The notes beneath the pieces were generated by a model. It was not told the origin of the DNA. It worked only from the letters and a program-made list of their open reading frames with translations, and searched no databases. Made by a program: the position numbers and the translations under genes. Positions 39,141 through 41,831 of a DNA stretch of 64,000 bases are shown in pieces. Positions within the stretch are counted from its first letter, which is position 1. Every line of letters starts with the position of its first letter. Origin of the DNA: a plasmid; assembly GCF_054482525.1 (NCBI RefSeq), contig NZ_JBTHVG010000004.1; one strand, 5' to 3'.

Positions 39141-39310
39141 ATAAAAGGATTGTTGCAGATACGAAAGTCGTTAGAATAGCCGCGGACGCTTGAGGCTGTA
39201 TGCCGAAAGCGTTTTGTGGATGGTATACAGCAGAAAGCCCCCTGGAGATTTTTTATCAATCAACCAGGGGCTCTACTGTAATGCCTAGACAACATTATAG
39301 TAGCCTGATA
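39141..39310 (+). repeat. Truncated upstream copy of the pnd (hok/sok-type) leader, direct repeat of 40562-40731
   Basis: about 170 bp roughly 93 percent identical to the leader in front of pndA; contains the mok-frame start atgccgaaagcg but diverges just before the pndA SD. Confidence 0.6.
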
Positions 39311-39353
39311 ATTTAGATATGTGTACATCCTACCGGAAAAGATACTTTTCAGG

Positions 39354-40445
39354 TCATTTATCAATGGGTGTTATTACCACCGGTAGTTTGTTTACGTCTT
39401 CTAAATTAACTGGTACCGGAGGTAACCATATTAATCTAGGTTTACGCTCATGGGCTAGTTCTGGTTTCTTACTTCCTGTCCAGTATGTATGCCAGTGTCC
39501 CCGGCGTATATGAGGACGTTTGCTACCTATTGTTGTCCGCTCTTTCCCTGTGGGTTCTGCTTGGCGATATTGCCGTATGGCTTGCCCCATTCGAATACCA
39601 ACGTCCCACTCCCGAATGTTTTGTGCTGGTAGTTCATGGTGAGTGTGAACATGCTTTTTGTGCTTTTCTGACCGTTTAAATTGATTTTTTTCTTTTATAT
39701 CATTGATCTGTGAACAGATATAAAGCACCATTGATATCTGTGCGTTAAGAAGATTAAACTCCCTGTCTCTGAAATCTTTGAGCTTTTCGTTAACTGTTAC
39801 GACGACTTCACCATCGATACACTCCATCTTTCTGGAGTCAAGAAGTCCTTCACGAGAGTCCTTTATTCTGATGATATTATTGACGACGTCAACATCCTTT
39901 TCTTTTAGCCCTGTAGTTCCTTGACTTTGTTTCAGATCATCAATAATGAAAAGCCGGATAATATTTCCATTATTGTCCAAAAATGGATAAAAGAAAAATC
40001 CATGTATCGGATAGGACGTAGGAAGTATAGTATGCAGATTTTCGGCTGAAACATAGATACTCCATGAAGGGAGTTCCTTGAGGATCTGTGCAGGAATGTT
40101 ATCAACATAGGTGTTAGCCACATCACTGATGATGTCCTCGCTTAGGCGATAAATTTTCTTTGTATAGCGCCAGTATATAAAACACAAAATACTGTGTGGT
40201 GACGATAATTCGTTTCCATGAAATAAAGATTCTAGTTTAGAAGCCAGTTCTTCATTTTTTTGTTGGCTCTGGAGACGACTCATTAGTATGCGTTCTTCAT
40301 CTTTTCTGTCGATAAATAATAATGGATTGTCGCTGCGTTTTTTATTTCGGCATGCAAAGATTTGCTCTTCAAGCCCAGGGATTGTGTTGATGACTTTTTT
40401 TATCTTTTTCAGGAAAATAGGTTGTTTTAACTGCGACATTTCCAT
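39354..40445 (-). CDS. Hypothetical protein, AT-rich cargo; C-terminal motif shared with 4713..5765 product
   Basis: 363 aa; SD aggagatggaaATG; C-terminal TGKERTTIGSKRPHIRRGHWHTYW...RLIWLPPVPVN. Confidence 0.6.
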   Translation of the reverse strand: MEMSQLKQPIFLKKIKKVINTIPGLEEQIFACRNKKRSDNPLLFIDRKDEERILMSRLQSQQKNEELASKLESLFHGNELSSPHSILCFIYWRYTKKIYRLSEDIISDVANTYVDNIPAQILKELPSWSIYVSAENLHTILPTSYPIHGFFFYPFLDNNGNIIRLFIIDDLKQSQGTTGLKEKDVDVVNNIIRIKDSREGLLDSRKMECIDGEVVVTVNEKLKDFRDREFNLLNAQISMVLYICSQINDIKEKNQFKRSEKHKKHVHTHHELPAQNIREWDVGIRMGQAIRQYRQAEPTGKERTTIGSKRPHIRRGHWHTYWTGSKKPELAHERKPRLIWLPPVPVNLEDVNKLPVVITPIDK

Positions 40446-40561
40446 CTCCTAAGGGGATTCTTTTATTAACTAAAATCAGCATAACATGCGTTGTTGTGAA
40501 GTAGAGAACCATGTATTGGGTTGGTTGTTAACTTCAAAAACAACGCTGAATCATTCAAATA

Positions 40562-40731
40562 ATAAAAGGATTGTTACAGATACGAAAGTCGTTAGAATAG
40601 CTGCGGGCGCTTGAGGCTGTATGCCGAAAGCGTTTTGTGGACGGTATACAGCAGAAAGCCCCTGGAGATTTTTTTATCAATCAACCAAGGGCTCTACTGT
40701 AATGCCTCAACAACATTATAGTAGCCCGATA
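40562..40731 (+). repeat. pnd leader copy 2 (functional copy upstream of pndA)
   Basis: direct repeat of 39141-39310. Confidence 0.6.
40570..40640 (-). ncRNA. pndB: Putative PndB (Sok-like) antisense RNA region
   Basis: inferred only from hok/sok organisation (antisense to leader around the mok start); no promoter mapped. Confidence 0.25.
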
Positions 40732-40905
40732 ACCGCCGGAAGGCAATGGAGGGGCTATGATGCCACAGCGAACGTTTTTAATGATGTTAATCGTCGTCTG
40801 TGTGACGATTCTGTGTTTTGTCTGGATGGTGAGGGATTCGCTTTGCGGACTCCGGCTCCAGCAGGGAAACACAGTGCTTGTGGCAACGTTAGCCTACGAA
40901 GTTAA
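40621..40905 (+). CDS. pndC: PndC (Mok-like overlapping leader frame)
   Basis: 94 aa frame overlapping pndA in +1 register, as in mok/hok. Confidence 0.45.
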   Translation: MPKAFCGRYTAESPWRFFYQSTKGSTVMPQQHYSSPITAGRQWRGYDATANVFNDVNRRLCDDSVFCLDGEGFALRTPAPAGKHSACGNVSLRS

Positions 40906-40921: not shown

Positions 40922-40952
40922 CGGCGGCAGGTTTTCTGCCGCCGCTTTGTTG
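40922..40952 (+). terminator. Rho-independent terminator after pndA
   Basis: ggcggcag-gttttc-tgccgccg followed by ctttgttg. Confidence 0.5.
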
Positions 40953-40983: not shown

Positions 40984-41235
40984 TCAATGAAGCGTATCTG
41001 GTATTGTTTCATTTTCCCTGAAGCCGATTAGCTCCAGCCGAATGCCTTTGCCATCGGGGGCCACGTTCTGCATTTCGCAGATACCACGTCGGGTCATGAG
41101 TGTGAAGGCTGTCATTGCCAGCATGGCTAACGCGTTTTCCTCGCTTCCGCTGCGTTTCTCGAGAGCATCGGCAATTTCTTCTATGCTCCCCACCTGAAAG
41201 CAAGAGTCGAATTCTTTACTCCACTTTTCTGACAT
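40984..41235 (-). CDS. Hypothetical small protein
   Basis: 83 aa. Confidence 0.4.
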   Translation of the reverse strand: MSEKWSKEFDSCFQVGSIEEIADALEKRSGSEENALAMLAMTAFTLMTRRGICEMQNVAPDGKGIRLELIGFRENETIPDTLH

Positions 41236-41388
41236 CGGATTTTCTCTCTGTATTTATGGGTAGTTATCGAACTGAATGTGCCAGTTTTTTCAGGAGACGG
41301 CAAAGTTGAGATGATTGGTTCTGATTCAAAGCATGAGTTTCCCCGGTGTGACGGGCATGTCGGGCGGATTTTGAGAAACAACAGATGT

Positions 41389-41419
41389 AAAAAAACCGAC
41401 TGGTGAGGTCGGTTTTTTT
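41389..41419. terminator. Bidirectional terminator-like hairpin
   Basis: aaaaaaaccgac-tggtgag-gtcggttttttt. Confidence 0.5.
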
Positions 41420-41723
41420 ACTGTTCCGTTACAGAGTGGGTGGCTCTGGTCGGAAAAGAACTGTCTATAACTGACTTGTAGATAGTACGTCTGGAATTAT
41501 ATTTCTGCAAGTACTGGATAAGTGTATACTCGGCATGTCAGCTCTGAGGCATGTTCTGTCCGACATATTGTTCAGCGGGAAGAACAGGTTGCAAGTCCTG
41601 GCCAAAACATCAGGTGGTGCTGGTTTTGGTGCTCTGGTCGGAGAAGAACTGTCTATAACTGACACTATAGAAACCGTTGTGACAGGCAGTGTAAGAGCGA
41701 ACAACGGGGTTCTTTCTCCAGTG

Positions 41724-41831
41724 ATGGAGAAGCGGATGATTAATCTGTTAATCATCGTTCTCAGGGCAGTAGTTGCCGTTGCAAACGCGCTGATTGCTGT
41801 TCTGGAACTGATCCGGGAACTTATCGACTGA
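41724..41831 (+). CDS. Small hydrophobic peptide, TisB-like type I toxin candidate
   Basis: MEKRMINLLIIVLRAVVAVANALIAVLELIRELID; GGAG 7 nt upstream of the second ATG (41736); long repeat-containing 5' region. Confidence 0.3.
   Translation: MEKRMINLLIIVLRAVVAVANALIAVLELIRELID

Follow-up and report, generated by a model that had tools for sequence, protein, structure and literature searches.

The finQ insertion beside the pnd locus of an IncI1 plasmid: an AcrVA2-family gene flanked by a probable leader relic

A plasmid stretch of 64,000 nt (contig NZ_JBTHVG010000004.1; hereafter the window) carries, between the conjugal transfer gene trbA and the toxin gene pndA, an AT-rich, single-gene segment that is bracketed by two copies of the front part of the pnd locus. 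This arrangement raises the questions of what the gene is, how it came to lie there and whether the supernumerary leader copy still has a role. Our reading, to which we assign a probability of about 85 %, is that the segment is the known finQ module encoding a protein of the AcrVA2 family, that it entered the front of pnd independently of a transposase, and that the toxin-less leader copy is a relic. Earlier publications already cover the gene with its phenotype and family, as well as the insertion and the accompanying duplication. A 1,250-bp FinQ insertion after the 173-bp trbA–pndA intergenic sequence, which is duplicated, was described in 2021 (PMC8004404), and finQ alters the length of the trbA–pndC amplicon used in pMLST (PMC2887853, citing the IncI1 pMLST scheme). 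The published insertion (RD1 of PMC8004404; pMLST variants of PMC2887853) has an anatomy identical to that of the window, with a duplication of approximately 171–173 bp, and its DNA is 100 % identical in many plasmids. These papers label the duplicate 'intergenic sequence' or 'the 5' end of pndC', whereas its nature as pnd promoter, leader and pndB region and the variability of the orphan copy are not noted there; the RD1-defining study drew no link from RD1 to phage-type conversion. Our additions are small, namely the match of both repeats to a leader model, the elements of the orphan copy, its mosaicism and a second cargo at the same site.

The direct repeats (Table 1) are each 171 nt long and 92 % identical in an ungapped comparison; a gapped alignment gives 94.2 %, with eight substitutions and two offsetting 1-nt indels. 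Both match the hok/sok-type leader model RF01794 of Rfam, copy 1 with 84.6 bits (39184–39341) and copy 2 with 132.8 bits (40605–40762), and because both scores exceed the gathering threshold of 59 bits the match is not a product of chance. What is duplicated is the pnd promoter together with the leader at the 5' end of the mRNA, the start of pndC and the pndB antisense region as far as the −10 of pndB; the duplicated segment begins and ends with GATAA. The DNA between the copies has a GC content of 38.5 %, whereas the window as a whole reaches 51.1 % and trbA, which borders the insertion site on the left, 51 %. The sole long ORF of this island lies on the minus strand (39354–40445, 363 codons), and the homologues of the outer island ends (39312–39353, 42 nt; 40502–40561, 60 nt) are confined to IncI1-derived DNA. 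The island is a foreign single-gene segment plus the upstream region of its gene. In copy 1 the pndC-frame ORF spans 39200–39316, no Hok-like ORF follows downstream, and homology is lost after 39311, 16 nt short of where the pndA Shine–Dalgarno sequence would lie. A preliminary description of this DNA had these points right: repeats of about 170 bp and roughly 93 % identity around an AT-rich segment of about 1.25 kb, an upstream copy that keeps the mok-frame start and diverges before the pndA ribosome-binding site, and pndA behind the downstream copy only.

Table 1. Features in and around the finQ insertion (positions in the window)
Feature	Position	Strand	Basis or remark
trbA, IncI1 conjugal transfer protein TrbA, 402 aa	37839–39047	−	ORF; annotation in matching plasmids
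Copy 1, truncated toxin-less duplicate of the pnd front	39141–39311	+	repeat; RF01794, 84.6 bits
Candidate orphan pndB' (Sok-like antisense RNA)	39224–39325	−	approximate, by homology to R1 Sok
Island-specific DNA, RD1 of PMC8004404	39312–40561		1,250 bp, 38.5 % GC
finQ, fertility-inhibition protein, AcrVA2 family (Pfam PF26125), 361 aa	39354–40439	−	annotation, sequence, fold
Copy 2, front of the intact pnd locus	40562–40732	+	repeat; RF01794, 132.8 bits
pndB antisense RNA gene of the intact locus	40645–40746	−	inferred by homology to Sok
pndA, Hok-family toxin, 51/50 aa	40757/40760–40912	+	ORF; public annotation starts at 40760
Terminator-like hairpin at the end of the pnd mRNA	40922–40944	+	10-bp stem, 8 G-C pairs, T tail

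The same description placed the insertion inside the killer locus, and in this respect it has to be corrected: the island does not interrupt pnd, and the intact locus is the downstream one. Copy 2 is 98–99 % identical to the single leader of plasmids with an empty site and folds into the canonical leader structure (z = −3.9). It has the pnd promoter TTGTTA-16-TAGAAT at 40571–40598, an mRNA leader from approximately 40605, and a pndC/mok-type frame that is open across 40621–40905 and overlaps pndA. The predicted pndB promoter consists of a −35 TTGCCT (40741–40746), a 17-nt spacer and a −10 TACTAT (40718–40723), from which an RNA would run from approximately 40711 to approximately 40645. PndA matches the NCBIfam HokA model (E=1e-18) and the Hok family model (E=7e-12), neither of which reaches the curated cut-off of its model, and a Hok/Gef family protein is annotated at the pndA position in L001, an empty-site plasmid. 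Sharing a Hok-family toxin, leader fold, mok-type frame, antisense promoter and hairpin with hok/sok, copy 2 and pndA form an ordinary member of the type I toxin–antitoxin (post-segregational killing) loci exemplified by hok/sok of R1 and pnd of R483/R64. In the IncI plasmid pESBL, pnd is functional (PMC7602700).

A discrete insertion bordered by direct repeats could represent a transposable element or a cassette with site-specific integration, or owe its position to one, and IS hits do occur in this region of other plasmids (ISEcp1 in finQ, IS66 between finQ and pndC, and IS1). However, searches of the island for a transposase or integrase ORF, for inverted repeats linking both ends and for a short target-site duplication found none; the preliminary description had likewise seen neither transposase nor target-site duplication. 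The flanking repeat of 171 bp far exceeds any such duplication and is itself a functional RNA-gene region, and no transposase or integrase gene lies consistently beside finQ homologues. With finQ as the only long ORF, no inverted repeats linking the ends and a repeat of this length, we rejected an identity as insertion sequence or transposon and regard movement by any element of this kind as extremely improbable.

What had been described as unknown cargo is, judged by annotation and sequence identity, finQ, the classical IncI1 inhibitor of F fertility, with an assigned phenotype and a published homology to AcrVA2. The annotation 'finQ' appears in hundreds of plasmids, including 100 %-identical ones, the product is identical to the cluster named 'protein finQ', and it shares 83 % identity and the same start with UniProt FINQ_ECOLX, the differences being arranged in patches. 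The originally proposed product of 363 aa corresponds to the full ORF, but translation most likely begins at the third codon (ATG-TCG-CAG), which gives 361 aa: AGGAG stands 7 nt upstream of this ATG, and the MSQ start is conserved in homologues and in UniProt FinQ, whereas the first ATG of the ORF is not a conserved start. Among the approximately 1,950 PLSDB plasmids that carry the trbA–pnd region, 519 (about a quarter) contain the island, which is therefore common but not universal. The preliminary description had named a universal IncI1 arrangement with an assigned function as the finding that would refute its reading; a function is assigned, and universality fails. In 515 of the 519 records the island shows 99 % identity or more, while its flanks vary between 95 and 99 %; the left junction is found in 511 records and the full island in 393.

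By sequence and modelled fold, FinQ belongs to the AcrVA2 family, named for an anti-CRISPR protein of Moraxella bovoculi. A phmmer comparison with AcrVA2 (PDB 7ci1) gave E=3.9e-17 over two stretches, including an identical KRPHIRRGHWH block, and the AcrVA2-like family PF26125 is precomputed on all FinQ homologues that we fetched. When the AlphaFold model of FinQ (pLDDT 86, pTM 0.85) was compared with the PDB using Foldseek, AcrVA2 (7ci2/7ci1) was the sole significant fold match (7ci2_A, E=1.7e-12, probability 1.0, TM 0.48/0.54), the next match having E=0.14. Across 90 diverse FinQ homologues, W90, H310, R312 and H315 are invariant (motif H310-x-R312...H315); they correspond to AcrVA2 W79, H286, R288 and H291, mutation of which impairs AcrVA2, according to a preprint that also names FinQ as an AcrVA2 homologue and notes lowered F tra mRNA (bioRxiv 10.1101/2022.11.29.518452). 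The two proteins thus resemble each other in sequence, fold and the W and H-x-R...H residues; both lie on mobile elements, and each is reported to reduce the mRNA level of the operon or gene that it targets. They differ in that identity is only about 20 %, the target is the F tra operon for FinQ and Cas12a for AcrVA2, the N-terminal ~80 residues of FinQ are specific to it and common to close relatives only, and AcrVA2 D89 is not conserved, being aligned to Ser in FinQ. FinQ also matches phrog_6160, a family of unassigned function, and it has no meaningful match among the PADLOC defence models.

Inhibition of F transfer has been known as the FinQ phenotype since the 1970s–80s (PMC8744291, citing Ham & Skurray 1989). 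In the classical reading FinQ acts at the level of tra mRNA (review PMC8744291), and older work described its effect as premature, Rho-independent termination. From this literature, FinQ would lower the amount of F-plasmid tra operon mRNA and so block transfer of a co-resident F-like competitor. The mechanism is most likely the one transferred by homology from AcrVA2: FinQ would recognize a nascent target polypeptide, whereupon the target mRNA would be lost, and the conserved C-terminal H-x-R...H motif would be used in this loss. Like FinOP, FinW, PifC, Osa and FipA, finQ is a single gene through which a conjugative plasmid blocks transfer of a competitor; unlike FinQ, which acts at the tra mRNA level, the others are not related to it and intervene at different steps (PMC8744291).

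If finQ is an acquired module, the direction of the change has to be considered. The two-leader arrangement might instead be ancestral in IncI1, with the single-leader 'empty' sites arising as deletions by repeat recombination. The 171-bp direct repeats could serve as a substrate for such deletion, and the leader of L001 matches copy 1 at a G (repeat position 15) and at the AG of a CCTAGAC site, while the rest is like copy 2. These shared markers are, however, ordinary polymorphisms that are present in other alleles too, and the markers private to copy 1 occur in no single-leader plasmid (best match 97.9 %). Further evidence against an ancestral state is that the island is foreign in composition and nearly invariant while the backbones differ, that finQ homologues reside in unrelated contexts, and that related IncK2/Z plasmids have one pnd and no finQ. 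An ancestral two-leader state is therefore very unlikely, although occasional secondary loss of the island through repeat recombination is likely.

We looked for a donor. FinQ homologues of 64–87 % identity lie in unrelated surroundings, namely a chromosomal island of Kosakonia, a Serratia colicin-M contig and metagenome contigs, and blastn homology of these contexts to the island is limited to 39349–40501, that is, to the gene and about 60 nt upstream. Five such contexts scanned with Rfam and blastn had no hok-type leader. The unique ends of the island had no exact match in 100,044 species genomes. They matched five metagenome contigs, two of which are ordinary finQ IncI1 DNA; the other three are remnants rather than donors because they retain only 39178–39341, between an IS1 and an IS256-family transposase. 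A donor was thus not found among the homologue contexts, species genomes or metagenome contigs.

The duplication is best explained as the scar of a transposase-independent insertion into the front part of pnd. It may have formed by a duplicative template switch guided by microhomology, as the GATAA at both ends of the duplicated segment would permit, or through one crossover that integrated a circle bearing a homologue of the leader. The divergence of 6–8 % between the two copies in the window is not predicted by simple duplication at insertion unless allele exchange followed, and the orphan copy may indeed have been reshuffled later by homologous exchange with other leader alleles. Recombination within the leader, to which the preliminary description attributed the capture, is plausible from sequence comparison because copy 1 alleles are mosaic and because other cargo is fused into the leader elsewhere. 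The other cargo is a gene for a protein of 328 aa with an RHH domain (RHH/HTH protein), which occupies the same pnd-leader site in approximately 103 PLSDB plasmids. It was rejected as a FinQ relative (BLASTP E=8.7, no PDB match) and had no match in the PADLOC defence library.

Copy 1 continues without a break from the resident left flank, an arrangement also seen in L001. By homology it has a −35 at 39150–39155, a −10 at 39172–39177, a leader from approximately 39184, a pndC-frame ATG at 39200 and a pndB region. Compared with hok/sok and pnd loci it is a fragment that has no toxin, toxin ribosome-binding site, authentic antisense −35 or mRNA 3' end. As the preliminary description suggested, it could on paper still make a Sok-like RNA: a substitute −35 TACACA (39320–39325), contributed by island DNA, stands 17 nt from the −10 TACTAT (39297–39302), and this candidate pndB' would give an RNA from approximately 39290 to approximately 39224 ending in a predicted terminator hairpin. 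The match of this promoter to the consensus (8/12) equals that of the authentic pndB promoter, and the hairpin (−30.3 kcal/mol, against −32.2 kcal/mol in copy 2) has been kept by apparent compensatory changes.

Despite these elements, a relic undergoing decay is the most likely status of the orphan copy, because its alleles are mosaic and variable, one −10 is altered, the 5' stem of the window allele is broken and no intact pnd locus with its allele was found in PLSDB. Copy 1 alleles are polymorphic between finQ plasmids, and in one common lineage the pndB' −10 has changed to TACTGT. The RF01794 match of copy 1 has extra broken pairs, and the minimum-energy structure of the window allele lacks the canonical 5' stem. 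A search of PLSDB with a chimeric query, in which the copy 1 allele was joined to an intact toxin, returned no intact pnd locus with that allele; its best match (97.9 %) was no closer than those of ordinary alleles. Inactivated or relic hok loci, in the form of toxin-less or rearranged copies, exist in E. coli chromosomes. Like these, copy 1 retains a hok-type leader without a working toxin; unlike them, it would be a by-product of cargo insertion and lies in tandem with a working copy.

Alternatively, copy 1 may be a selected functional part, providing a second pndB-like antitoxin RNA, a pnd promoter transcript antisense to the whole of finQ, or both; or, conversely, the pndB' terminator may serve the finQ mRNA, whose 3' UTR would then carry pndB sequence. 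Either arrangement would tie the expression of finQ to the RNA circuit of pnd. In favour of a function are the leader-model score above the gathering cut-off, the predicted pndB' promoter and kept hairpin, and the retained pnd promoter hexamers, TTGTTG-16-TAGAAT also being an allele of functional empty-site loci; moreover, the first terminator-like hairpin downstream on the plus strand is at 40444–40458, just past the finQ start. Copy 1 also accompanies essentially every intact island, an observation that speaks against a relic. However, its persistence is expected regardless, because the only easy route to loss is recombination with copy 2, which deletes finQ too. The polymorphism, the altered −10 and the disrupted 5' stem argue against function, as does a promoter scan that gave no more sites here than in shuffled sequence. 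We consider a selected role unlikely. Even as a relic, copy 1 might retain activity of the pnd promoter, directed antisense into finQ, and produce a pndB-like RNA; nothing indicates selection for this.

The two cargoes allow a broader proposal, in which the pnd front is a shared docking sequence for single-gene cargo swaps upstream of the killer locus in I-complex plasmids (finQ in approximately 519 and the 328-aa gene in approximately 103 PLSDB records). The orphan leader would then not be inert: its promoter would run antisense through finQ, and pndB' would add antitoxin RNA, wiring competitor inhibition to post-segregational killing. We regard this proposal as distinctly doubtful.

As a discovery the locus carries little weight, its parts being published and its length polymorphism being built into the IncI1 pMLST scheme. 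For IncI1 typing and annotation, it should be noted that the 'intergenic' duplicate represents another pnd promoter with leader and pndB region, and that finQ starts with MSQ. FinQ is a convenient and widespread E. coli member of the AcrVA2 family, and its target in the F tra operon, if found, would test polypeptide-directed mRNA removal as a general weapon between mobile elements. A minor point of annotation is that RefSeq at times calls finQ at 259 aa; we considered whether such entries are truncations and rejected that reading.

The repeat search returned one long direct repeat, its two copies 92% identical ungapped and 94% gapped (the differences being eight substitutions and a pair of 1-nt indels that cancel out), bracketing an island with a GC content of 38.5% as against 51.1% for the window and 51% for trbA. 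This repeat is no chance similarity, because RF01794, the Rfam model for hok/sok leaders (gathering score, 59), matches both copy 1, the toxin-less repeat beside trbA, and copy 2, which leads into pndA; the scan of the whole 64-kb window found no further hok/sok-type leader. The island has a sole long ORF. Copy 1 retains the pndC-frame ATG at 39200, and its homology stops at 39311, 16 nt short of where the ribosome-binding site of pndA would lie. Neither a transposase, nor terminal inverted repeats joining its two ends, nor a short target duplication was found in the island ORFs, ends and flanks. The anatomy in the preliminary description was thus borne out: a pnd leader of about 170 bp occurring twice, an AT-rich single-gene segment of about 1.25 kb between the repeats, an upstream copy with a mok-frame start that diverges before the ribosome-binding site, pndA on the downstream copy only, and no visible transposase or short target-site duplication.

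Features of the pnd region and of comparison records (window coordinates unless a record is named)
Feature	Location	Strand	Details
Direct repeat, copy 1 / copy 2	39141-39311 / 40562-40732		171 nt
Island	39312-40561		1,250 bp
Island ORF	39354-40445	-	363 codons
finQ	39354-40439	-	361 aa
RF01794, copy 1 / copy 2	39184-39341 / 40605-40762		84.6 / 132.8 bits
pnd mRNA promoter, copy 2	40571-40598		TTGTTA-16-TAGAAT
pnd mRNA promoter, copy 1	equivalent position		TTGTTG for TTGTTA, as in empty-site plasmids
pnd mRNA 5' leader start, copy 1 / copy 2	~39184 / ~40605
pndC start	within the 171 bp		by homology
pndB antisense RNA	within the 171 bp	opposite	body, terminator hairpin, -10 TACTAT; by homology
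Terminator-like hairpin	40444-40458	+	antisense to finQ
pndA, Hok-type	40757/40760-40912		50/51 codons; 3' of copy 2 only
83-aa hypothetical gene	40984-41235	-	convergent with pndA
AgrB	41387-41474	-	RF02891, 53.7 bits
dqlB, DinQ-like toxin	about 41734-41829	+	offset from L001 annotation
Direct repeat, 33 nt	41443-41475 / 41631-41663		97%
Alternative cargo	L003 1699-3222; L005 2001-3395		trbA-pnd site
Extra hok-type leader; two AgrB copies	L003 4249-4397; 4429-4516, 4675-4762		leader RF01794, 70.5 bits
Kosakonia finQ homologue locus	L006 2956-5086
Metagenome fragments	L019 56-218; L020 1050-1212; L022 3442-3604		human gut

Megablast of PLSDB with the region retrieved 1,954 plasmids, nearly all of them conjugative I-complex plasmids from Escherichia, Salmonella and Shigella, and the island gene is annotated finQ in the 391 records with the complete arrangement. 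The local Pfam-A and NCBIfam libraries held no model for FinQ, and the newer Pfam family PF26125 'AcrVA2-like' is placed on all its database homologues. FinQ aligns with the sequence of the AcrVA2 anti-CRISPR crystal structure (7ci1; E=3.9e-17, KRPHIRRGHWH block identical). Among 1.84 billion cluster representatives scanned, 2,980 relatives were retrieved (E<=1e-3), the alignment being limited to residues ~80-360, and W90, H310, R312 and H315 are invariant among 90 aligned relatives. An AlphaFold model from this alignment (pLDDT 86, pTM 0.85) had AcrVA2 as its only significant fold neighbour in the PDB (E about 1e-12, probability 1.0; next E=0.14). A protein of 363 aa had been proposed; the 363-codon ORF is present, but the true start is most likely its third codon, ATG-TCG-CAG, with AGGAG 7 nt upstream. 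We assign 361 aa because this start is kept in the Kosakonia, Serratia and metagenome homologues, where the first ATG of the ORF is not conserved, and is shared with UniProt FinQ, which likewise begins MS(R/Q)LKQ. RefSeq gives finQ a length of 259 aa in some plasmids (L013 2255-3034, L014 2254-3033, L015 954-1733) despite an intact 361-codon frame.

The literature already covers finQ, its phenotype and protein family, and likewise the insertion and the accompanying duplication, so the reading of the gene as an unknown cargo is wrong. The review PMC8744291, in its account of Ham & Skurray (1989), states that IncI1 FinQ (e.g. of R820a) causes transcription of the F tra operon to terminate at several sites. 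A preprint (10.1101/2022.11.29.518452) describes AcrVA2 as binding the Cas12a N-terminal polypeptide, leading to translation-dependent loss of Cas12a mRNA, with H286, R288 and H291 required, and names FinQ as an AcrVA2 homologue with a C-terminal domain predicted to be similar. PMC8004404 reports no link of the finQ region to phage-type conversion. The ISEcp1-blaCMY-42 insertion within finQ described in PMC4508618 is the one that cuts the gene at 40103 (3704 in the finQ-bearing plasmid L002), with sugE and blc, in ~120 PLSDB records.

In PLSDB, 519 records contain the 1,250 bp specific to the island (515 at least 99% identical, 393 full length). This DNA is also present in 369 of the 5,426 complete E. 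coli genomes, and is full length in 197. Most other plasmids with the region, such as L001, have an empty site consisting of trbA, a single leader and pndA. The arrangement is therefore common without being universal, in about a quarter of the plasmids with this region, and of the proposed refutation, universality with an assigned function, only the assigned function holds.

That the island entered IncI1 by insertion, and was not there ancestrally, is supported by its foreign base composition, its near invariance on differing backbones, the location of FinQ homologues (64-87% identity) in unrelated places (a Kosakonia chromosome, a Serratia contig, metagenome contigs), and the IncK2/Z relatives, which carry a single pnd with different neighbours. 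This reading was already advanced in the preliminary description. DNA homology to the outside FinQ loci covers 39349-40501 only, and no hok-type leader was found near the Kosakonia, Serratia or metagenome homologues. The Serratia homologue shares its contig with colicin M; that of Kosakonia (77% identical) lies beside a CAP12/PCTIR TIR-domain gene in an integrase-bounded chromosomal island that also contains a CbtA toxin gene.

The duplicated target opens and closes with GATAA (G/ATAAAAGG ... CCCGATAA/, slashes marking its ends), and so a microhomology-guided duplicative template switch would fit. The 6-8% divergence between the copies in the window would then require later allele exchange, which does happen, as copy 1 mosaicism shows. 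Alternatively, a single crossover could have brought in a circle bearing a leader homologue. The donor searches were negative: no intact pnd locus with the copy 1 allele was found in PLSDB, and a search of 100,044 species genomes for the outer 42 and 60 nt of the island gave no hit. Three metagenome contigs in which only 39178-39341 is present, comprising the leader of copy 1 and the leftmost 30 nt of the island, were rejected as donors: with IS1 (InsA/InsB) and an IS256-family transposase on its flanks, the fragment is what is left of an IncI1 region with finQ that was cut and moved into a different mosaic.

Elements within the 171 bp are those we take to be present by homology with hok/sok of R1. 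The homology break falls in the pndB promoter spacer, such that the -35 is TTGCCT in copy 2 and TACACA, from island DNA, in copy 1, with 17-nt spacing and an 8/12 match to consensus in both. Because copy 1 has this substitute -35, keeps the -10 and retains the hairpin (-30.3 kcal/mol; copy 2, -32.2), it could on paper make a pndB-like RNA, as had been suggested for a Sok-like antisense, and its pnd promoter could likewise drive transcription antisense to finQ. Selection for such activity is argued against since changes in the window's copy 1 break conserved 5' stem pairs, with loss of the canonical fold, the left junction varies (95.3-100% identity in 511 records, versus at least 99% for the island), and direct comparison shows copy 1 to be a mosaic of leader alleles differing between plasmids. 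L013 carries nearly the resident allele, the pndB' -10 is TACTGT in L002 and L012, and only a T beside the junction (GCCTGATAA) is constant. We read copy 1 as a relic reshuffled via homologous exchange. The terminator-like hairpin overlapping the finQ ribosome-binding site would end orphan pnd promoter transcripts short of copy 2.

In ~103 PLSDB records the space between trbA and pnd is occupied by another segment, of 1.5 kb. Its 328-aa product has a FitA-like ribbon-helix-helix domain at the N-terminus (E=3e-6), together with a weak HTH; a relationship to FinQ was ruled out. The segment is fused in L005 into the pnd leader at ATACAGCAGAAAGCCC, bringing a divergent hok-type 5' leader, and L003 holds a relic of the chimeric leader in tandem with a complete pnd locus. 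The front part of pnd is therefore a joint at which recombination recurs, which is the one modestly new point.

The 83-aa gene is conserved in all site variants and has no NCBIfam family match. Closely downstream of pnd lies a second type I toxin-antitoxin module, in which, through the 33-nt repeat, a stretch internal to AgrB faces the mRNA leader of dqlB, the arrangement expected of a trans-acting antisense RNA. With the extra leader and AgrB copies of L003, the region downstream of pnd is one of amplification and shuffling of type I toxin-antitoxin modules.
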